IMG/VR virus record: IMGVR_UViG_3300049144_000095
Location: 96,001-160,000 of that record
Origin: a virus
Taxonomy: Duplodnaviria > Caudoviricetes
Length of the DNA: 64,000 nt
Strand: one strand, 5' to 3'
Positions 1 through 58,920 of the stretch are shown piece by piece (within the stretch, counting starts at the first letter, position 1; every line of letters starts with the position of its first letter). Under the pieces are notes generated by a model, which did no database searches, was not told where the DNA came from, and saw only the letters and a list, made by a program, of their open reading frames with translations. A program made the translations under genes and the position numbers.

Positions 1-950
1 TGCGCGTCCGCGTACCTGCGCATGCACACCCCTGGCTTGCCACATGTCCGACTTGCCTCTCTTGTTCTCTTCTTTCCTTCCATCCCTCCCCTTTCTCTCA
101 CATCCCCACATGCCCACATGATTCGGGCATATGGGACAGACTCCCGTGCTGGCCAGTGGAGCGCACACACGCGCGTAGGGAGCCTGTTTCCCCAGGTCAG
201 ACCTAGTGTCAGGACAAATGGGACACCCCTCCTGACCTGCGATGTTTGCAGTTGGCCTATTGCTGACAGAACGTCTCGTAAGCAATCGCGCCGACACAGT
301 GAACCGAGCAACAAAAGCCCAGCTCAGAGGCATGATCAGCGTTGATCCCGACATATGGGACAGGCTTGTGACCTGCGGTTATGTCGAGCCGAGTGCAGGT
401 TTCGAGCGAGAGAAATACCGTCGCCTCTCGTCTCATCTAGAGGCATAAGGCTTGGTTCCACTCTTGTGTTCTCTTGTCTGTATGTGTCTACACAGACACA
501 CCAAACTGGACACATGGGACAGAACTTCTTTCCGTGCTGGTCAAGTGCCTTTTTCTGCACTTCTTTGCGACCCCCTTTGACTCCCCCGAAACCCTCCCCG
601 ACCCTGTCCGTTTCGCCCTGACATGCGGGACTTTCTCCTGTGACCTGGGTCACACATTCGAGTGGAAAGCAGTTTCCACTAGCGTTTGCATACCCCCCAG
701 CTTTCGCAAATCGCTGCCCTTGTATCGCCATGTATGTCCGTTTCCCTCATGGGGCTCTGATCCCTGAGACCCCTTCTGACCTGCACAAATAACTTTCTCG
801 CTAGCATCGTCGCAGGTCATACAGCATGGCCTAGGCCGTTATCTGTTCGTTACCAACTTCCCTTTTGTTGCTGGTCAGAGCGCTATCCAAGTCGCGACCC
901 GGCATGTCCTGACTTTTGGGAGCCTGGAGCGGACAGAGCCATGACCTGCG
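1..950. other. AT-richer, pyrimidine-rich non-coding left-end region (possible genome terminus/terminal repeat)
   Basis: Visibly lower GC than the rest; no credible genes; 4x ATGGGACA (131, 218, 355, 514) and 7x TGACCTG/CAGGTCA (193, 233, 369, 641, 777, 813, 942). Confidence 0.45.
827..838. promoter_or_regulatory. Palindromic operator-like site 1 (TGGCCTAGGCCG)
   Basis: Matches YGRCCTAGGYCR seen 10 times, always intergenic. Confidence 0.7.
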
Positions 951-1317
951 GTTTCTTAATCGTTGCTCTCGCCTTCGATAACGCAATGAATCCCATCATG
1001 CCAATCTTGTGTTGTCCCGCCGGGCACATGGCCAACGGGACGCAACGCACCACGAGGCAAGCCGCACACGCAAACCCCTTCGGGGGGGCCGCGACGTTGC
1101 AGCTTGGGCGAGTGGTCCGGAGAGCGGGAACGCCGGTAGTCGTAACGCCGGTAACCCGATCGATGGGGTTCCTTGAGATGTTCGGAGCCGAACGCGAGAC
1201 GCCCGGGTCGTACCGGGTAGCGCGGGAGGCGCAAGCGGCGAGATGCGGGCCGGAAATCGCATCGCTCGACTCTGGGGGAGGGTGTTTCCCTCCGTCAGTT
1301 CGGGACCGGCGCACGCG

Positions 1318-1530
1318 GAGTACGCAGCCACTTGCCGGAACGCCTTACAGCCGCAACCTGCGCGGCGGGGGAATCCGGGAATGTTGTGGGAAACACGTGT
1401 CAGGGAGTTAGTCCGGCCCGACGAGATGCGGCGCACGTGAGTACGCGTCACTTGCCAGGAAGTGCAACCCCAATCCACGGGGGGAAGTCTGGGAATACAT
1501 GCGGGAAAGCGTGTCAAGTCAGTTAGTCCG
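1318..1530 (+). repeat. Degenerate tandem repeat, 2 units about 120 bp apart
   Basis: Shared blocks GAGTACGC..CACTTGCC, GGGGAA..C.GGGAAT, GGGAAA..CGTGTCA, AGTTAGTCCG at about 1318-1415 and 1439-1530. Confidence 0.6.
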
Positions 1531-1952
1531 CGAACGGTGCCCGTTGCACCCTGGATTCGAGTCAAAACGCACTGCGCGAGTACGGCGCAGATGATTGCAC
1601 GTTCTTCGGTTAGGAAACCCGGGGCGATACGTGCACAACGGTACGGCCGGATACGGGGAGACTCGGAAACTCCCCCCGGCGGCGCACGGGGGCCGCGTAG
1701 CGGCTCCCGTGACACACGCATTACCCGGCGGGACGGATGCTGACGCATCACGCACGGACTGACGTCCTGATCTACGGGACGCGTGACGACGTAACGCGCG
1801 GTCCGTCCCGCCACATCGCTCACGTTTGGTGAGTACGAGCGGACAACTTGCGTCCGATAGGCACCGGTCAAGAGCCGGGCAACCTATTACGGGTGAGCTG
1901 TGTCCGTTCCTCCCACTGCGCGTTGGTGGTGAATCCGGAAAGGGGATGCGGG

Positions 1953-2129
1953 ATGACGGTTTATCTCGCGAACGGCGGAACGCTTACGGTCCTGGCAAAT
2001 GGGACCGTGGAACTCCGCCGGAACGGACAGACAATGCGGGTGAGCGGGCGCGGCAGTCACCGCGCAACGGCGGATTGGGTCCGCTCCCTGGCGTTCGGCC
2101 GTGACGTTCGGTACGTCACGGCAGGCTGA
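1953..2129 (+). CDS. hypothetical protein (58 aa)
   Basis: ATG after CCGGAAAGGGG start-associated motif. Confidence 0.7.
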   Translation: MTVYLANGGTLTVLANGTVELRRNGQTMRVSGRGSHRATADWVRSLAFGRDVRYVTAG

Positions 2130-2178
2130 CAGTCGCTCCGTAAAGGCGGAGCGCGGGCATTCGGAAAGGGCAGGAACC

Positions 2179-3939
2179 ATGGGACGAACCTTTGTTGCAC
2201 TGAACAGCGACGGACAGCCGCGTATGTACGGGTACGCCCGGGGCGCGGGTCACGTCGTCCTGATCCCGGTGGACGCGATGAACGATCCTTTGGCGACGGG
2301 CGGCGTGCTGGAAACGCCGTGCGGCGGTAAGGGAGTGGACTCCGAACGGCTCACGGAGAAGTTCACCGGTGACAAGATGTGCACGCGTTGCGTTGCGTGG
2401 CTCGACTCCGACGGGGGCCGCAACGACGTCGAAGCGGCGCGGGAAGCGAAGTGGGACCGTGAGAACACGGGTCCGTCCCTCGCGGAGATCATGGGCGACC
2501 ACATCCTGATCACGCTTGACGGGGCGCGGGAGGTGAAGGGGCCGGACGCGCGGGAGGAGTCTGCCCCGGAGCCGGTCCGGGAGATCACCCGCGAGGAAGT
2601 GCGGGACCTTATCGGGCGCAGCAAGCGGGGCGCGGCCGTGCGGAAGCGCGAGGCGGCCGTAGAGCGGGAGCGGGAGCGGTTGGCCGCGCAGCGGAAGGCG
2701 CGGGAAGCGCGGGATGCTGCTGCGGAAGCGCGGGAGGAGTCTGCCCAGGAGTCGGAGCCGGTACAGGGTGAGCTGTGGGGCAAGACTCATGCGGAGATGC
2801 GGGCGGCGGTCGCAACCTTCTACGCGTCCGGTAAGCCTGTCCCGGCGGAAGTTGCCGCTCTGCCTGATCCGGCCGTGGTGCAGGTTCAGTGGTCCGGGAC
2901 GAACGGCGCGGGGGACACCGACTGGCGCGGATGCGAGGGTGCCGGTCCGGTGGCGGTCGTCAACGCGGAGCGGACGCACGGGAAGTGCCCGGCATGCAAC
3001 GCGTACATCGAATTGACGGACACCGAGGGGGAAGAGGACTTCCGCATCGGGTCGCACTACGAATACGGGGTCGCGGCCCCCGCCAACCCCCACATGTCGT
3101 CACAGTCGTTGGACGCCGTGGAACACGGGACGGTGCCCGGGTCCCCCGTGATCGCGAACAAGCGGCGCAAGGTCGAAGCACTGTGCAAGCGTTCTGACAA
3201 GGTGGCGCGCGGCGTCACCCAGGGCGGAGCGAAGCAGTGCCCGGAGTGCGCGCGGTCGGTGGAACTGTACAGGCGGGAGCGCACCGTCAAGGGCAAAGCG
3301 AAGGTGCAGTGGGTCTACCCGGAACACGTCGACTCGCGGGACACGTTCGGTCGGTCGGGAGCGGACGGCAAGGGTGAGCGCAAGGTCACGCCGCGCGGGA
3401 GTGGCGCGGACGCCGGTAAGGGCGCGCGGGATCACGGGAGTGTGAACGGCTCCGCGAACACGGGGGCCCACAACCTCCCGCCCGTCCAGCCCAAGAGCGG
3501 ATGGCTGGCCGTGGCCGGTACGTCGGTCCTCTCTGCCACGGTGCGTCCGGGTGTGGATCCGGTGGTGCAGGGCGAGTGGTGCCCGCTGTGCAAGGGTCCG
3601 AAGAACATCGTGCACCGTGGCAAGTCGCGCGGGTGGCGCCGTGACCACTCGAAGAAGATGGCGGCCTGGCACAAGGAGCAGGACGCAAAGCGCGCGGTCA
3701 AGCGGGAGCGGGACACGCAGCAGGGTAAGCGACTCCCCCAGGGTGCGCGTAAGGCCGCGCGGCAGGCTGCGAGCGTCGGGAGTTTCGCCGAAGGGACCGT
3801 GGCCGGTGTGGTGATGCGCGGGACGCGTCCGGAGGACACCCCCGCCGGGACGCCGGTCGGCAAGCGCACGCGACAGGTCAGCAAGCGCACCCCCGCCCCG
3901 GGTGAGGCGGAAGCGGTCAAGGGCGGCAAACGCAAGTAG
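2179..3939 (+). CDS. large basic protein with multiple CxxC zinc-ribbon-like motifs (586 aa)
   Basis: ATG after TCGGAAAGGG; CTRC, CPAC, CPEC, CPLC; charged coiled-coil segment; Arg/Lys-rich tail. Confidence 0.85.
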   Translation: MGRTFVALNSDGQPRMYGYARGAGHVVLIPVDAMNDPLATGGVLETPCGGKGVDSERLTEKFTGDKMCTRCVAWLDSDGGRNDVEAAREAKWDRENTGPSLAEIMGDHILITLDGAREVKGPDAREESAPEPVREITREEVRDLIGRSKRGAAVRKREAAVERERERLAAQRKAREARDAAAEAREESAQESEPVQGELWGKTHAEMRAAVATFYASGKPVPAEVAALPDPAVVQVQWSGTNGAGDTDWRGCEGAGPVAVVNAERTHGKCPACNAYIELTDTEGEEDFRIGSHYEYGVAAPANPHMSSQSLDAVEHGTVPGSPVIANKRRKVEALCKRSDKVARGVTQGGAKQCPECARSVELYRRERTVKGKAKVQWVYPEHVDSRDTFGRSGADGKGERKVTPRGSGADAGKGARDHGSVNGSANTGAHNLPPVQPKSGWLAVAGTSVLSATVRPGVDPVVQGEWCPLCKGPKNIVHRGKSRGWRRDHSKKMAAWHKEQDAKRAVKRERDTQQGKRLPQGARKAARQAASVGSFAEGTVAGVVMRGTRPEDTPAGTPVGKRTRQVSKRTPAPGEAEAVKGGKRK

Positions 3940-4003
3940 CAGGCACGTTCACGCTCGGGGGCCCGGGACGGTCCGGGCCCCCTCCGGAGAGGACTCAGAA
4001 AAG

Positions 4004-4189
4004 ATGAGCTGGATTCAGAACCTGCCCGCGTACGCCATCCGTCGGGGCCTCGCGAACGGGGACTTCAGGCCCGAGCAGATCGCCGAGGCGGAGCGGCGCT
4101 TGACGGAACTCACGGTCGACCGGCCGCGCATGGTGATCGGTCTGGGGGTCCGGGACGACCGGCCACGCGGCGTCGTCGCCGTGGGCTGA
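4004..4189 (+). CDS. hypothetical protein
   Basis: GGAGAGGA upstream; co-oriented ORF. Confidence 0.7.
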   Translation: MSWIQNLPAYAIRRGLANGDFRPEQIAEAERRLTELTVDRPRMVIGLGVRDDRPRGVVAVG

Positions 4190-4275
4190 CACGGCACAGC
4201 TCCGACCGCAGACAGGTGACGTGCGGGGGTCCGGGGACCGTTTCGGACCCCCGCCCCGGAAAGGGAGAGATACGC

Positions 4276-4731
4276 ATGGACGGTAAGGGTGAGACGCGGG
4301 TGCGGCGACGGTGGGCAGTGATGCCCCGGGACGGGAGCAGGCGGGTCGGCAGGGTGGAACGGTCGGTGTACCTGATCTGCGCGGTCGCGGTCGCGGGTGC
4401 GGCACTGCGGGTCGCGGCGCTGCTCTCCGGGACGGGAGCGGACACCGCCGGGGACACCACGGAGCGGGACCGGCAGATGATCATGACCGGTGGCTACCTG
4501 TCGTGGCAGGTGACGGACGGGTGTGCGCAGGGTCCGGTGGAGTGCAGCCGGGTACTGCGGGAGGCCAACGTCGGGGGTCGCGCGTACGGGGTGCGCGTGA
4601 TGAGCGACGGATCGCTGATCGGGCGGGACGACGATCCCGGTGCGGTCACGGTATCGGTGTCGGAGCTGCCCGCCGGTGACTGCTGGTGGGAGGTCAAGGC
4701 GGACGGTTCTACGGAACCGCTCTGCAAGTGA
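4276..4731 (+). CDS. membrane-anchored hypothetical protein
   Basis: CCGGAAAGGGAG upstream; hydrophobic segment VYLICAVAVAGAALRVAALL; 4 downstream Cys. Confidence 0.75.
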   Translation: MDGKGETRVRRRWAVMPRDGSRRVGRVERSVYLICAVAVAGAALRVAALLSGTGADTAGDTTERDRQMIMTGGYLSWQVTDGCAQGPVECSRVLREANVGGRAYGVRVMSDGSLIGRDDDPGAVTVSVSELPAGDCWWEVKADGSTEPLCK

Positions 4732-4828
4732 CGTGACGGAGATGCGCGCCGGGGTCGCCGGGCCGTGACGGTCCGGGGTCCCTGGGGTGCCGCTCGGAAG
4801 CGGTATTCATCGGAGAGGGGTAAGAGAC

Positions 4829-5245
4829 ATGGGCAACTACACGAACCGCGTTTCCCTGCTGCTGGCCGGGATCATCGCGTTGCTGATGGCTCCGTCGGGC
4901 GCGGCGGACGCGGCACCGATGGGCGGGACCCGCGTCGCGGCGGTGCGGTCCGTCTGTGAGACGGGGTACCGGGGGATGCCGGAGTACGACCGCTACTGCC
5001 TGGTCAACGGCACGGCGCGGGACGGGATGCGCCTGTGGTTCGCGGAGATCGACGGCAAGCGCTACAGCGTGCGGGAGCGGCGCGCGATGTGCCGGGACGC
5101 GCGGGCGACCGGCAGCATCCGGCGGGGTGCCATGGACCTGATGAACGACGTCGCCTACGACCGCTACCGCAACTACCGGGATGTCCTGCGGGTGACGGGC
5201 GCGGTCGCGGTGCTGGACTGCCGGGCGCTGGGCATCAAGGGCTGA
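4829..5245 (+). CDS. putative secreted protein
   Basis: Signal-peptide-like N-terminus (LLLAGIIALLMAPSGAADA-A); 4 Cys. Confidence 0.75.
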   Translation: MGNYTNRVSLLLAGIIALLMAPSGAADAAPMGGTRVAAVRSVCETGYRGMPEYDRYCLVNGTARDGMRLWFAEIDGKRYSVRERRAMCRDARATGSIRRGAMDLMNDVAYDRYRNYRDVLRVTGAVAVLDCRALGIKG

Positions 5246-43254: not shown

Positions 43255-43316
43255 GAGGCCGAAACCCCCGACAGGGGGTCGCGGAATGGGTGTCCCGCCT
43301 GACGATGGCCGTCAGC
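43255..43316 (+). ncRNA. type II hammerhead ribozyme HH1; predicted cleavage after C43280 (GUC)
   Basis: GGCC-GAAA-stem III CCCCC/GGGGG-TC-stem I GCGG/CCGC-CTGACGA-T-GGCC; all core nucleotides present, extra U between A9 and G10.1. Confidence 0.85.
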
Positions 43317-43338
43317 AAGCAACCGGCAAGGAGAAGAA

Positions 43339-43653
43339 GTGCAGCAGATCACTTTCGGCACGAGTCACCGCCTGAGCGTCTACGCCCTGGGGGACACCAC
43401 CCGTATGAACGTCGAGCGTGCGCTGCGCGTACGCGGTCACGCCAACGTGTCCGTCACGGACGTCGCGGACGACGCCGCCTGGGAGGGGGAGAGCCGCCTG
43501 CGTCTCGTGAGCGGCGCCTACAACGGAGTCGATCCGCACACCGCTCTGTACCTGGTGGCCGACGATCAGACGGAGGCGGCAGTCGCGGAGGCCCTGCATC
43601 TGCTGAAGCCGGACGCCGTCCTCAACAGCCAGTGGATCACTCGGCCCGAGTAG
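43339..43653 (+). CDS. hypothetical protein
   Basis: AAGGAGAGAAG upstream; starts 59 nt after the HH1 cut site. Confidence 0.8.
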   Translation: MQQITFGTSHRLSVYALGDTTRMNVERALRVRGHANVSVTDVADDAAWEGESRLRLVSGAYNGVDPHTALYLVADDQTEAAVAEALHLLKPDAVLNSQWITRPE

Positions 43654-48165: not shown

Positions 48166-48182
48166 TACAATGGCCTAGGCCG
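48166..48182 (+). promoter_or_regulatory. -10-like TACAAT fused to palindrome site 9 (TGGCCTAGGCCG)
   Basis: Intergenic. Confidence 0.75.
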
Positions 48183-48213
48183 AAAGTAGTGCACGCTGGA
48201 AAGGGGAAGGTGA

Positions 48214-48306
48214 ATGGCCGAACAGAAGACCGAGGCGGGTCTGCCCAGGCGGGAACCGGGTGCGACCAACCCCCCGGCACCGGGGCCTCGTCCGCCGCAG
48301 GAGTAG
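48214..48306 (+). CDS. Pro-rich micro-peptide (30 aa)
   Basis: GGAAAGGGGAAGG upstream; not in ORF track. Confidence 0.4.
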   Translation: MAEQKTEAGLPRREPGATNPPAPGPRPPQE

Positions 48307-48384: not shown

Positions 48385-48690
48385 ATGACTCCCAGGGAAC
48401 TCTTTGCTGGCACAATTCCTGGCCCGTGCTGGGTGCATGGCAGCGACCTCGGGGTGGACGAGGACGGTGGCCTCTGGGTCCGGGCCACGGCGCACCTCAA
48501 GGAAGGCCTGGCATCCCGGGTGCACCCGCTCGGGGAGAGAATCACCATGAAAGACTTCCGGGAGTACTCCATACTCACTCCCGAGGGGCAGACCATCCTG
48601 GATCCTCGTCACCGAACTGAACCACTCTGGCGGCGAGTTCAGGAGTTGAGCGCCGAATCGATCGGCAGCGACTGGATCGCCGTCCACTGA
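48385..48690 (+). CDS. hypothetical protein (paralog of 57709-58014)
   Basis: WV..DLGVD.DG.LWVR..WI.V. Confidence 0.7.
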   Translation: MTPRELFAGTIPGPCWVHGSDLGVDEDGGLWVRATAHLKEGLASRVHPLGERITMKDFREYSILTPEGQTILDPRHRTEPLWRRVQELSAESIGSDWIAVH

Positions 48691-55079: not shown

Positions 55080-55343
55080 ATGGCTTACATCGAAATCGAC
55101 GAGATCGATGGCCTTTTCGACGTCGAGGAGACCTTTCATCACGGCAAGCCGATGACCGTGCTCAGCATTCTTGGCATGCCCGTGCTGTACGGGCCGCCCG
55201 GCAGGCTGGACCGGCAGTACGGGGATGAGGTGCTGGAGGAGCTGAAGCCGCACATCGCCAAGGCGCTGGCGAGGCTCCTGCTCGCCGACGGCAACCTCCC
55301 GGGCTGGCAGGCCGAGCCGGTCGACGTCGAACCTCCACACTGA
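55080..55343 (+). CDS. hypothetical protein (tandem paralog of 55480-55752)
   Basis: AGGAGCACCCC upstream; MA.IEI.EI.GLF.V. Confidence 0.8.
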   Translation: MAYIEIDEIDGLFDVEETFHHGKPMTVLSILGMPVLYGPPGRLDRQYGDEVLEELKPHIAKALARLLLADGNLPGWQAEPVDVEPPH

Positions 55344-55479
55344 CGAGACGGTTCGTGCCAAGCCCGGACATCAACCCAACATCGGAGCGTCGCATCTCTT
55401 GCCTTACCGATATGCATCCGTCACTCCGCACGCCATTCGGACCGTCTCGCCCAGCACTGACCGTAGGGAGAAGAAGCAA

Positions 55480-55752
55480 ATGGCGAAGATCGAGATCAAC
55501 GAGATCGAGGGCCTGTTCACCGTGGATGTAGCCAGGGACACCGGCGGCAACTACGTCGGCGTACTGAAGATCCTCGGTCACACAGTGCTGTACGCCCCGG
55601 AAGAGGTCGTGCTGCACCCCGGCACTGCCCACTGGAACGACGTCACCAGTGGGGTCCTGGCTCGCTTTCTGGCGACACAGTTGATGGACAGCGGCGCCAT
55701 GGAGGGATGGGACTTCACGTCGCCCACCGGGCGAGAGGTGAGCGGGGACTAA
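55480..55752 (+). CDS. hypothetical protein (tandem paralog of 55080-55343)
   Basis: AGGGAGAAGAAG upstream. Confidence 0.8.
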   Translation: MAKIEINEIEGLFTVDVARDTGGNYVGVLKILGHTVLYAPEEVVLHPGTAHWNDVTSGVLARFLATQLMDSGAMEGWDFTSPTGREVSGD

Positions 55753-55872
55753 CGGCCCATCGATTGGGATGGCTCCACGCCCGACCTGAATGTCCGCCAG
55801 AATGACCCCGGCGTTCCGATCCGGTACCGGAGCGCCGCATCCTTCACTCAACTCCCAAGGAGGGTCCCTGTC

Positions 55873-56220
55873 GTGGGACTGAACTCTCGCGTTGCCCAGA
55901 TCGTCTGGGGCCTGGTTCCGCTCGTTCTCGCCGGTTCCATTCTGGAGCTGCCGTTCATCTGGCGGGCGCTCAAGACCAAGAAACGTAGCGACATCCGGCT
56001 GGCGGTCATCTTCGGTGTGGTGCAGCTCGGCGTCTGGCTGCTCTACGTCATCTTCACGCAGGACTCCAGCACCCTGCGCGAGGACGTCCCGGCCGCCCTC
56101 ATCTGGATCAGCGCCTTCGCCGCCGCCGTCGCCGCCGCGTACGTGTACCGGCCGCTGAACAAGGAGGAGCGCATGGACCAGGCGGCCCAGGACCGGCGCC
56201 CCGGCTCGTCGTATCTGTAG
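55873..56220 (+). CDS. membrane protein, 3 predicted TM segments
   Basis: AAGGAGG upstream; three hydrophobic stretches. Confidence 0.8.
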   Translation: MGLNSRVAQIVWGLVPLVLAGSILELPFIWRALKTKKRSDIRLAVIFGVVQLGVWLLYVIFTQDSSTLREDVPAALIWISAFAAAVAAAYVYRPLNKEERMDQAAQDRRPGSSYL

Positions 56221-56343
56221 GACCCCCGGCCAGCCAGCAGGCAGCGACGTTACACATGAGCAGCAACCACGGCAGGCCGGGTGAGGCCCTGAAGGGCACG
56301 ACCGCAGGCCACTGAACAGAATCAATCGGAAAGGAAACGCAGC

Positions 56344-56652
56344 ATGGGCAGCAACGACAGCTCCCTCGATGAGCGCTACCCCGAGCACGCCAAACAGCGC
56401 AAGGTCATCTCCCAGATGGACGCAGTCCAGTCCTTCCTCGACGCCATGCAGGAGCGGGGTCTCGAACTCGGGGAGACGGTGGTCACGCGGGTCGCCGTGT
56501 TCGAGGGCACCGAGGAGTGCACCGCCGTGCAGTCGGTCAGGGGGGAGAGGCTGACACGGCTGGTCAACGAGCACTTCGGCATCGACCGCTCCAAGATCCT
56601 GGCCGAGAAGGAGCAGATGATCGCCGACATGGCGGCAGGAAGTCTCCGATGA
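56344..56652 (+). CDS. conserved phage-type hypothetical protein
   Basis: YPEH.K..FL..G..L..FGID..+..EK motif; TCGGAAAGG upstream. Confidence 0.8.
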   Translation: MGSNDSSLDERYPEHAKQRKVISQMDAVQSFLDAMQERGLELGETVVTRVAVFEGTEECTAVQSVRGERLTRLVNEHFGIDRSKILAEKEQMIADMAAGSLR

Positions 56653-56978
56653 AGCCGAGTGAACGCCTTCTGAAGATGATCCGCCAACAGCTCCCCGAGC
56701 TGGACATCCCCGAAGGCGCCCGGCTGGAGCGAGCTGCTGGGTCCTACGCCGGATGGAACCGCACATCGCTCGGAGCCTGGGTGTGGACGGCGGTAGACGC
56801 GAACGGCGTACCCCTGCACCGGAACTCCGAGGGACAGCCCCTGGCCATAGGTTCCCAGTGGACCATGACCGAGCTGGTGCGCGCAGGTTCCCTCGCGGCC
56901 AACCCATCGGGAGCGAACCCCGGAGACATCCACATCGAGCCGACAGACGAGAAGCAGCGAGAGGGGGTGGCACAGTGA
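56649..56978 (+). CDS. conserved phage-type hypothetical protein
   Basis: GAW.W..IGSQW.+.EL motif; ATGA overlap. Confidence 0.8.
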   Translation: MKPSERLLKMIRQQLPELDIPEGARLERAAGSYAGWNRTSLGAWVWTAVDANGVPLHRNSEGQPLAIGSQWTMTELVRAGSLAANPSGANPGDIHIEPTDEKQREGVAQ

Positions 56979-57259
56979 ACGGCTACACCGAGCTGGTTGT
57001 CGATGTGTCCGGCCTGTACGACGGCTACACGGCGCCCGAAGTGATCTGCCAGCGAGCGCGGGATCACTGGCTGAACGAGTTCGCGGCGGCCGAACTCAAG
57101 CTCCCGTTCGGAGAGGGCAAGCAGCAACGGCTGGACGACGGCATGTACCTCATCTACTGGTTCGTCGGCACCGACGAGTACTGGTACTACGTCACGCTCA
57201 ACATGAATCAGTACAAGGTCACGACCGAACGGAAGGGCAAGGCGCAGAAGCGCGCCTGA
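56975..57259 (+). CDS. hypothetical protein
   Basis: GTGA overlap. Confidence 0.75.
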   Translation: MNGYTELVVDVSGLYDGYTAPEVICQRARDHWLNEFAAAELKLPFGEGKQQRLDDGMYLIYWFVGTDEYWYYVTLNMNQYKVTTERKGKAQKRA

Positions 57260-57280
57260 CGGAACGGAAAGGGGAAGAAC

Positions 57281-57652
57281 ATGACCGATCAGCCATGGGT
57301 GCAGGTGTTCCCCGGCCCCGGCCTGGATCCGGGATTCCGCTGGGACATCAACGGCCGGGCCCAGTTCCGGCACAAGGGCTACTCAGTGGATGTCCTCATC
57401 CGGCAGGCCACCACCGACGATGCCGCGTATTACGTACGCGAGGAGCCCAGCATCAACGACGTGGTGATCGTCGGCACGGTCAGCCTGGACCACGTGGAGC
57501 TGTCGAACGCCGAGCACCGCGCTGACATCACGGAACCCTTTCAGATGAGCCAAGCCCTCGCCTACGTGCTCGACGCGGCCGTGGAGGACGCTCGTCGGAT
57601 GGTGGGCCGCCTGGTAGAGCGGGTGGCGGAGATCGACGCGAAGCAGAACTGA
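57281..57652 (+). CDS. hypothetical protein
   Basis: ACGGAAAGGGGAAG upstream. Confidence 0.8.
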   Translation: MTDQPWVQVFPGPGLDPGFRWDINGRAQFRHKGYSVDVLIRQATTDDAAYYVREEPSINDVVIVGTVSLDHVELSNAEHRADITEPFQMSQALAYVLDAAVEDARRMVGRLVERVAEIDAKQN

Positions 57653-57672
57653 CCCCAGGCCGAAACCGGGCA
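57649..57672 (+). repeat. truncated hammerhead 5' half; 24-nt direct repeat of 58011-58034 with 1 mismatch
   Basis: CTGACCCCAGGCCGAAACCGGGCA vs CTGACCGCAGGCCGAAACCGGGCA. Confidence 0.75.
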
Positions 57673-57708
57673 GCCAATTCAGTCTTTAGAAGGGAGGGAG
57701 TGGGACCA

Positions 57709-58014
57709 ATGGTGAGCATCAACGATCTGGATGGACCGGTGCGAACGGTCGCCGACGTCGTGCGCCAGAGGAAGATCGGCGCTCACTTCGTCGCGCACCG
57801 AGACATCGGCCTGGATCCTCAGGGCAACTTCTGGCTCCGACGCGAAGGCAAGGTGGATCTGCTTCCGGGACTGAGGAAGAAGATCGCTATTGCATGCGTC
57901 CGGGATTCGGGTCTGCGCCTGAGTTCCAGTCAGACGATCGCGACCGACAAGGTGCAACGTCTCGCCGACCCCGTGGACGACACCACTTGGATCAAGGTTC
58001 AAGGGACCTTCTGA
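57709..58014 (+). CDS. hypothetical protein (paralog of 48385-48690) flanked by hammerhead-derived direct repeats
   Basis: AGGGAGGGAG upstream. Confidence 0.75.
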   Translation: MVSINDLDGPVRTVADVVRQRKIGAHFVAHRDIGLDPQGNFWLRREGKVDLLPGLRKKIAIACVRDSGLRLSSSQTIATDKVQRLADPVDDTTWIKVQGTF

Positions 58015-58081
58015 CCGCAGGCCGAAACCGGGCATCCAGCCCGGTCGCGCAGTGAGGCTGCGCCTGACGATGGCCGTCAGC
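58011..58081 (+). ncRNA. type II hammerhead ribozyme HH2; predicted cleavage after C58046 (GUC)
   Basis: Stem II CTGAC/GTCAG + bulge CGCA + GGCC/GGCC; GAAA; stem III ACCGGGC/GCCCGGT; stem I GCGCAG/CTGCGC; core CTGACGA plus extra U. Confidence 0.9.
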
Positions 58082-58105
58082 GGAGGAACCGGAAAGGGGA
58101 AGAGC

Positions 58106-58429
58106 GTGGGAGACCAGAAGGACGTCTACCTGATCGGCGAGCAGTACTCGAACAAGGCCACAGGTCGAAAGGGCGTCGCCGTGATCCGCCCGGCAGTGCT
58201 CGAAGGGCTGTTGTCGGAGGAGCCGAAGGTCATCACGACATCCCCCTGTTGCCCCGACAAGGTCCGGCACCTGTCCTACGCCGACATCACGTCGAGCCTG
58301 GCTGCCAAGCAGGGCGGCTGGGCCATGCAGTGCAAGGAGTGCAAGTGGCACTACAAGGTCGTCGCTGAGCAGACCGGAGCCACCCGGCTCGGCCTGTACG
58401 GCGTGCGCTGGATCTCGCAGGGGTTCTGA
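58106..58429 (+). CDS. zinc-binding hypothetical protein
   Basis: CCGGAAAGGGGAAG upstream; PCC..CKEC; starts 60 nt after the HH2 cut site. Confidence 0.8.
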   Translation: MGDQKDVYLIGEQYSNKATGRKGVAVIRPAVLEGLLSEEPKVITTSPCCPDKVRHLSYADITSSLAAKQGGWAMQCKECKWHYKVVAEQTGATRLGLYGVRWISQGF

Positions 58430-58447
58430 GGAAGGGGAGACAGAGGC

Positions 58448-58801
58448 ATGGGAAGCAACCTGAGCGGCGTACAGGCTGGGACCGAGCTGCTGCTGGCAAG
58501 GAAGGGCTTCGGCAGGCGCAACCTGGACCAGGAGCCCAGGAAGGTGCAGGTGCACAAGGTCGGCACCAAGCTGGTGTACATCCAGGATGGCACCACCGCC
58601 ACCGCGTACCGGATCGAGAACGGCCGGTCCAACTCTCAGTACAACGACTACGAACTGTGGCGGCCGGAGGAGTGGGCTGCGGAGGGCAGGCGTGCCGAGC
58701 TGGAGAAGGCCCTGAACGCTCACGGTGTCGAGGTCTGGCGCAAGCAGCAGCCGATCCGCGTCCTGGAGAAGCTGCTCGCCGTCCTCGACGGAGAGCTGTA
58801 G
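58448..58801 (+). CDS. hypothetical protein (SH3-like beta barrel, V.KVG.KL)
   Basis: GGAAGGGGAG upstream. Confidence 0.8.
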   Translation: MGSNLSGVQAGTELLLARKGFGRRNLDQEPRKVQVHKVGTKLVYIQDGTTATAYRIENGRSNSQYNDYELWRPEEWAAEGRRAELEKALNAHGVEVWRKQQPIRVLEKLLAVLDGEL

Positions 58802-58920
58802 CCGAACACCCCCTGACCTGGCCTTCCAGCATGGAATTCCACCCTGGAAGACACGAGGAAGCGTCAAGAAGAGAAGTGGAAGCGCCCCGGAAGGGGGCTG
58901 GAACCGAAAAGGAAGAAGAC

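Follow-up and report, generated by a model that had tools for sequence, protein, structure and literature searches.

Type II hammerhead ribozymes are common in bacteria and prophages, where several copies often flank small genes; in the majority of them, a pseudoknot joins loop I to the 3' tail (Perreault 2011, PMC3088659). In Desulfovibrio vulgaris, three type II hammerheads located beside phage-like genes cleave in vivo, as determined by end mapping (Olzog 2021, PMC8782182). Hammerheads of types I and III depend on other peripheral features, among them a reverse Hoogsteen U-A contact between loops (PMC6155905). Reviews describe the role of phage and prophage hammerheads as unresolved (PMC6765202, PMC6155905). 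The leading idea, which is unproven and appears also in PMC3088659, is that they process polycistronic mRNA into units of differing stability (PMC6765202, PMC6155905).

The element considered here, HH2, is located in an IMG/VR virus record of 251,159 bp that is complete according to CheckV and has a GC content of ~66%; the sequencing runs with reads matching this phage record were all DNA metagenomes of soil, and none was an RNA run. The window, meaning the whole 64-kb stretch that was analyzed, covers bases 96001-160000 of the record. The segment 58020-58075 on the plus strand, with flanks at 58011-58080, is read with a probability of about 85% as a type II hammerhead that is predicted to cut itself and thereby separate the neighboring cistrons of the plus-strand transcript. 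It resembles the elements of Rfam family RF02276 and of the Perreault survey in its core, in its permutation (open at stem II and capped at stems I and III), in its short stem II and in its setting between co-directional small phage genes, where such elements often occur several per genome. It differs from them in its score below the Rfam cut-off, its extra U, the lack of a loop I/3'-tail pseudoknot, and a 3' tail that complements the core as well as, in HH2, an upstream CUGAC. With the three D. vulgaris loci (loc 1-3) it shares the type II topology and the proximity to phage-like genes, and the 39-nt 3' fragment reported there fits a 17-nt stem I; the host in that case is a bacterium, whereas HH2 sits in a large phage. 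HH2 is a further example of the phage and prophage type II hammerheads already described, and it adds no new ribozyme class. The features of the locus, and of two related copies in the window, are given below; R1 denotes a covariance model whose 23 input sequences are relatives from viral contigs other than the window and its close relatives.

57709-58014, plus strand: upstream ORF, 101 aa, closed by TGA at 58012-58014, inside the distal helix.
58011-58015, plus strand: upstream CUGAC, 5' strand of the distal extension of stem II, with the tail at 58076-58080 as its partner.
58016-58019, plus strand: bulge CGCA, 4 nt, the last base of which, A58019, is ~99% conserved in the family.
58020-58023, plus strand: stem II 5' strand GGCC (11.4-11.1), from the sequence and the Rfam and R1 alignments.
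58024-58026, plus strand: core G12 A13 A14, from the sequence and the same two alignments.
58027-58045, plus strand: stem III hairpin, A15.1 to U16.1, 7 bp with loop AUCCA, from sequence, fold and compensatory changes.
58046, plus strand: C17, with the predicted cut between 58046 and 58047, from its position in the Rfam and R1 alignments.
58047-58063, plus strand: stem I hairpin, 17 nt, 6 bp with loop UGAGG, from sequence, fold and compensatory changes.
58064-58070, plus strand: core C3 U4 G5 A6 C7 G8 A9, from the sequence and the Rfam and R1 alignments.
58071, plus strand: extra U between A9 and G10.1, from the sequence.
58072-58075, plus strand: stem II 3' strand GGCC (10.1-10.4), from the sequence and the Rfam alignment.
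58076-58080, plus strand: 3' tail GUCAG, complement of both the upstream CUGAC and the core CUGAC, from family comparison.
58064-58080, plus strand: alternative hairpin CUGACG-AUGGC-CGUCAG, 6 bp, from fold energy and N7/tail covariation.
58106-58429, plus strand: downstream ORF, 107 aa, with a GTG start and a purine-rich RBS at 58093-58102.
43257-43315, plus strand: HH1, a second type II hammerhead, which shares core, extra U and GUCAG tail with HH2 and has no upstream CUGAC.
57649-57679, plus strand: remnant of a hammerhead 5' part, its first 29-31 nt (CUGAC-CCCA-GGCC-GAAA-CCGGGC-AGCCA), broken in the stem III loop.

The sequence-only reading had placed every hammerhead element, in type II order, at 58011-58081 on the plus strand, and this proved base-exact, each part being located in the sequence. 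The conserved core is complete (C3-A9, G12 A13 A14, A15.1-U16.1, and an H at position 17 that is C, not G), and three helices surround it, of which stems I and III have closing loops while stem II is open. In one scan, C occupied cleavage position 17 in 82 of 88 distinct relatives. The minimum-energy fold of the 71-nt HH2 RNA is the hammerhead secondary structure, at -35.5 kcal/mol with z = -2.7.

Covariance searches gave a graded picture of how far HH2 conforms to the described family. A check against the Rfam type II models, proposed in the sequence-only reading, bore the assignment out in that RF02276 (Hammerhead_II) was the sole family match and aligned over its full length, and fell short in that the score was 30.4 bits against a gathering score of 37, which is a curation threshold and not a biochemical feature. 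The corresponding E-value was 0.037 for the whole 64-kb window and 1.7e-4 locally. No family matched anywhere in the window at Rfam gathering thresholds; at permissive thresholds its two best matches were both Hammerhead_II, namely HH2 and 43257-43317, the latter at 24.2 bits. The score lies below threshold because the Rfam model counts the 'UG' following A9 as an insertion and expects a pseudoknot tail. A loose core pattern (CGAAAC..GTC..CTGANGA) occurred twice in the window, against 0.13 expected from shuffles, and a structure descriptor run over the entire 251-kb genome returned two sites only, HH2 and HH1. Under R1, HH2 scored 63.2 bits (E 1.8e-16) and HH1 55.9 bits (E 2.5e-14), and the next-best match in the window, a non-hammerhead, reached 12 bits. 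A chance match, or a decayed and inactive relic, would be compatible with the score below the Rfam gathering value and with the decay of stem I in the sister copy HH1, but is extremely improbable in view of the E-value from this independent family model, a core intact at all positions, perfect stems I and III of about 6-7 bp, and the conservation of the element in related phages. HH2 is thus a true hammerhead with the type II topology.

Relatives were collected by scanning IMG/VR viral contigs with exact patterns, which yielded several hundred loci, and a structure filter reduced these to 283 distinct elements of the same architecture. The patterns prescribed GGCC in stem II and, to some extent, the extra U, so the frequencies given for the family hold for that sub-family only. 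When 130 distinct relatives were aligned to R1, 99.5% of pair cells were paired and 14 of the 16 pairs showed compensatory changes on both sides, a level reached in none of 500 shuffles; slid alignment registers fell far below the pairing of the true register. An ungapped alignment of 18 sequences including HH2 had stems I and III 100% paired and all 12 variable pairs compensatory, and in 18 relatives of the same length six of the seven stem III pairs carried compensatory changes. Stem II varied little because the searches had fixed GGCC. The earlier description of HH2 as an intact type II hammerhead is thus upheld by complete catalytic nucleotides, the right topology and abundant compensatory changes in stems I and III among its relatives. 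In bacterial genome contigs, a 20-base gapped pattern returned mostly chance matches, and ~7 of the ~120 loci listed passed the structure filter; among the matches listed, those passing included Fretibacterium, Syntrophorhabdaceae, Gemmatimonadales (two), Bifidobacterium and Burkholderia. One 67.6-kb viral contig (L326; IMGVR_UViG_3300038412_000035) holds at least 12 hammerheads of the family within 5 kb (167-5166), an extreme case in which ribozymes flank every small gene.

Near-identical versions of HH2 are present on six contigs of 76-260 kb (L031, L051, L023, L040, L013 and L052). In all six the hammerhead is followed by a homolog of the downstream gene 58106-58429, with a protein identity of only 57-62%, so that the ribozyme is more conserved than its neighbors.

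The position of the element relative to genes is likewise constant. A long ORF ends no more than 45 nt upstream in 249 of the 283 members, and an RBS and start codon follow downstream in 229 of them, with a median distance from cut to start of 57 nt (IQR 52-65); the two window copies have distances of 59 nt (HH2) and 58 nt (HH1). Across loci L009-L478, an upstream UAG stop borrows the first G of stem II in 70 of the 283 members, and most of the rest have their stop no more than 9 nt from stem II, an arrangement in which a terminating ribosome would cover the 5' strand of that stem. The element therefore occupies a fixed intercistronic frame of stop, ribozyme, RBS and start. HH2 conforms to this frame as it had been read from the sequence: the TGA that ends ORF 57709-58014 lies inside distal stem II, and the first base of the GTG at 58106 is the 60th nucleotide past the cut. 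HH1 lies between a stop at 43236-38 and a GTG at 43339. Cutting of polycistronic mRNA, hypothesized for such elements, fits the fixed frame; the sequence-only reading, which had taken this orthodox view, is supported.

Annotation of the surrounding genes was sparse. Neither of the ORFs flanking HH2 matched a family in Pfam or PHROGs, nor did six further long ORFs of the window give a match, and megablast of both hammerhead loci against 50,697 deposited phages gave no match and hence no annotated relative. The second gene downstream of HH2 (58448-58801, plus strand, 117 aa) carries a Phage ProQ C-terminal-like domain (PF24203, E 4.7e-16; phrog_3032) and, going by the name of this domain, possibly encodes an RNA-binding protein near the ribozyme. 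A scan of 56800-58900 for promoters and terminators found neither to delimit the transcript, and the tail hairpin was rejected as a terminator since it has no U run. On the minus strand, 55162-56973 holds a 603-aa ORF without a Pfam match, located where the GC skew is negative; should this ORF be real, the plus-strand operon that includes HH2 begins after ~56974.

Comparison with related phages also indicated how the gene upstream of HH2 may have arrived. The remnant at 57649-57679 matches the hammerheads of L031, L051 and L023 up to the stem III loop and then diverges, and it directly follows the stop of ORF 57281-57652, the very position at which L031 has an intact hammerhead. At this place L031 has no gene 57709-58014; its hammerhead and its homolog of the downstream gene are separated instead by a small ORF rich in Cys. 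Because the remnant and HH2 bracket a gene that has no counterpart at this place in L031, the gene was presumably inserted and the 5' part of the ribozyme duplicated, which looks like recombination at the ribozyme and suggests that conserved hammerhead junctions double as recombination points. It could be supposed from this that the 55-70 nt element serves primarily at the DNA level, as an exchange or insertion point for small phage genes, with RNA cleavage secondary or lost. The bracketed gene, the different small ORF that follows the hammerhead in L031, and the variable gene content beside prophage hammerheads (PMC3088659) would all be accommodated. However, a DNA junction needs neither intact catalytic nucleotides nor compensatory changes that keep helices amid sequence drift, and it needs no fixed distance to the next start codon; as the main role it is quite improbable, and the two roles are not mutually exclusive.

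Two other sites in the window show, or may show, erosion of the same motif. HH1 and HH2 share GGCC-GAAA…GUC…CUGACGA-U-GGCC-GUCAGC and differ in stems I and III, each of which is internally complementary. The core of HH1 is intact. Compared with the corresponding elements of L032 and L022, HH1 has a 4-nt deletion in the 5' strand of stem I, leaving 4 bp, and has lost the upstream CUGAC, and it may be weaker. A weak R1 match at 48168-48226 on the plus strand (12.1 bits, E 0.19) consists of UAGGCCGAAA, a gap in place of stems and core, and AUGGCC. ORF 48385-48690 follows ~160 nt downstream and is distantly paralogous (25% identity, E 2e-5) to the gene beside HH2; the match may be another decayed hammerhead junction.

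The extra U of HH2 is not an idiosyncrasy. Between A9 and G10.1 the family has U in 149 members, no insertion in at least 125, A in five, G in four and C in none; the extra-U form is a common variant, about as frequent as the canonical core, and is under-called at the Rfam threshold. An extra nucleotide at this place had been claimed for CChMVd(+), and it is documented there: according to PMC3705267, which cites De la Pena & Flores 2001, an A-to-U change at the extra position raised trans-cleavage 3-4 fold. By that account the extra U is compatible with fast cleavage. The likeness consists of one extra nucleotide in the same place, whereas the CChMVd(+) hammerhead is of type III and serves a plant viroid in rolling-circle replication, and its setting and peripheral structure are unrelated to those of HH2.

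Stem I is 17 nt long in ~85% of the 283 members, and when it has this length its loop reads U-N-A-N-G with an invariant first U (241/241), while ~99% of members have an A immediately before the 5' strand of the 4-bp stem II. The sequence-only reading had proposed that loop I contacts the stem II bulge; a Watson-Crick contact of this kind was not borne out, showing no covariation in mutual-information tests across the family. A pseudoknot of the Perreault type between loop I and the 3' tail was rejected as well, since by mutual information loop I did not covary in Watson-Crick fashion with the flank on either side. Because both bases are invariant, it is proposed instead that the loop I U and the bulge A make a reverse-Hoogsteen U-A contact like that of type I and III hammerheads. 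By analogy, the invariant U opens loop I, and the A lies at the equivalent of the loop II end, 4 bp from the core; the equivalent of loop II in HH2 is, however, an open strand or a 4-nt bulge, and the contact is proposed from invariance.

A further finding of the family comparison concerned the 3' tail. A tail of the form xUCAG, comprising the five nucleotides after stem II, is present in 95 members, and in all 95 of them x is the complement of core position N7. The pairs are C-G in 71 cases, U-A in 22, and A-U and G-C in one each (Fisher 8e-22); the 95 members fall into 61 sequence clusters, and in four groups, each of near-identical elements, both bases switch together. A reading of CTGAC..GTCAG as a protein-binding DNA palindrome was judged unlikely, the innermost position varying through all four complementary pairs. 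An upstream strand complementary to the tail occurs in 35 of the 95 tail-bearing members, compared with 21 of the 188 others. Because so few tail-bearing relatives have the upstream complement, it is the core that is conserved as the tail's partner. The distal stem II helix CUGAC/GUCAG, described earlier as part of the ribozyme, does pair in the predicted fold of HH2; given its occurrence among the tail-bearing relatives, the ribozyme does not generally include it.

G8 and C10.4 extend the pairing of tail and core to the 6-bp hairpin CUGACG-AUGGC-CGUCAG, of -7.0 kcal/mol, which excludes the active fold because it buries C3-G8 and places the 3' strand of stem II in its loop. By nearest-neighbor energies, the active fold of HH2 has -35.5 kcal/mol with the distal helix and -31.3 kcal/mol with the 4-bp stem II only, and the alternative has -32.7 kcal/mol; the active fold is thus 2.8 kcal/mol more stable than the alternative when the distal helix forms and 1.4 kcal/mol less stable when it does not. 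HH1, which has no upstream strand, comes to -23.8 kcal/mol in the active and -25.2 kcal/mol in the alternative fold, and across the family the alternative is favored by a median of 1.7 kcal/mol, tertiary stabilization not counted. In a 116-nt context the nearest-neighbor model prefers the inactive hairpin, which appears in the centroid, so that cleavage of HH2 could be slow or conditional. On these modeled energies, the upstream CUGAC is best seen as a competitor for the tail that would tip HH2 toward the active fold. At odds a little short of even, it is proposed that about a third of the family, HH1 and HH2 included, possesses a second fold that is nearly iso-energetic with the first, maintained by covariation at N7, which is the sole core position free to vary, and incompatible with catalysis, and that in HH2 the upstream CUGAC competes for its tail. 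No description of such a core/tail hairpin was found in the literature searched.

The hairpin could act before or after cleavage. As a conditional switch, it would constitute an OFF state prior to cleavage, and the RNA would cut itself only when the tail is held elsewhere, whether by an upstream CUGAC as in HH2, a ribosome, a protein or a helicase; processing would then be tuned by translation of the upstream gene, which has its stop codon inside the CUGAC. The predicted advantage of the alternative fold, both in HH2 when the distal stem is absent and in the family at large, its presence in the centroid, and the enrichment of upstream complements among tail-bearing members speak for such a switch, as does the stop codon, which overlaps the competing strand in HH2 and abuts stem II in most relatives. 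However, the energy model leaves out the tertiary stabilization of the active fold, the 60 of 95 tail-bearing members that have no upstream competitor would be mostly OFF, no ligand or protein partner is known, and a role after cleavage accounts for the same covariation. A switch of this kind is on the whole unlikely.

The preferred reading is self-cleavage with a role for the hairpin in the product. On transcription, stems III and I would fold as hairpins and the GGCC strands would close stem II around CUGACGA and GAA, while pairing of the upstream CUGAC (58011-15) with the tail would bias the RNA toward the active fold before the cut. The RNA is predicted to cut itself soon after transcription, past C58046. 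The upstream product would have the stem III hairpin and a 2',3'-cyclic phosphate at its end; the downstream product would begin with a 5'-OH, after which come the hairpin of stem I, 17 nt capable of forming CUGACG/CGUCAG, the RBS and the start at 58106. After the cut, the freed tail could pair with the core and lock the product in a form that has no ligation-competent core. The downstream mRNA would thereby gain a fully structured 5' end devoid of any single-stranded stretch, and the neighboring cistrons would become separate units that are independently stable.

The family analysis yields three testable regularities: a fixed intercistronic frame, a common extra-U variant and a covarying core/tail hairpin. 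From the last, one expects either that cleavage is regulated or that the downstream mRNA has a 5' end that is structured and ligation-proof. If this hairpin functions as a switch or a product lock, it would represent natural conformational control built into a hammerhead and, if true, would provide a concrete, mutable handle on the purpose of phage hammerheads.
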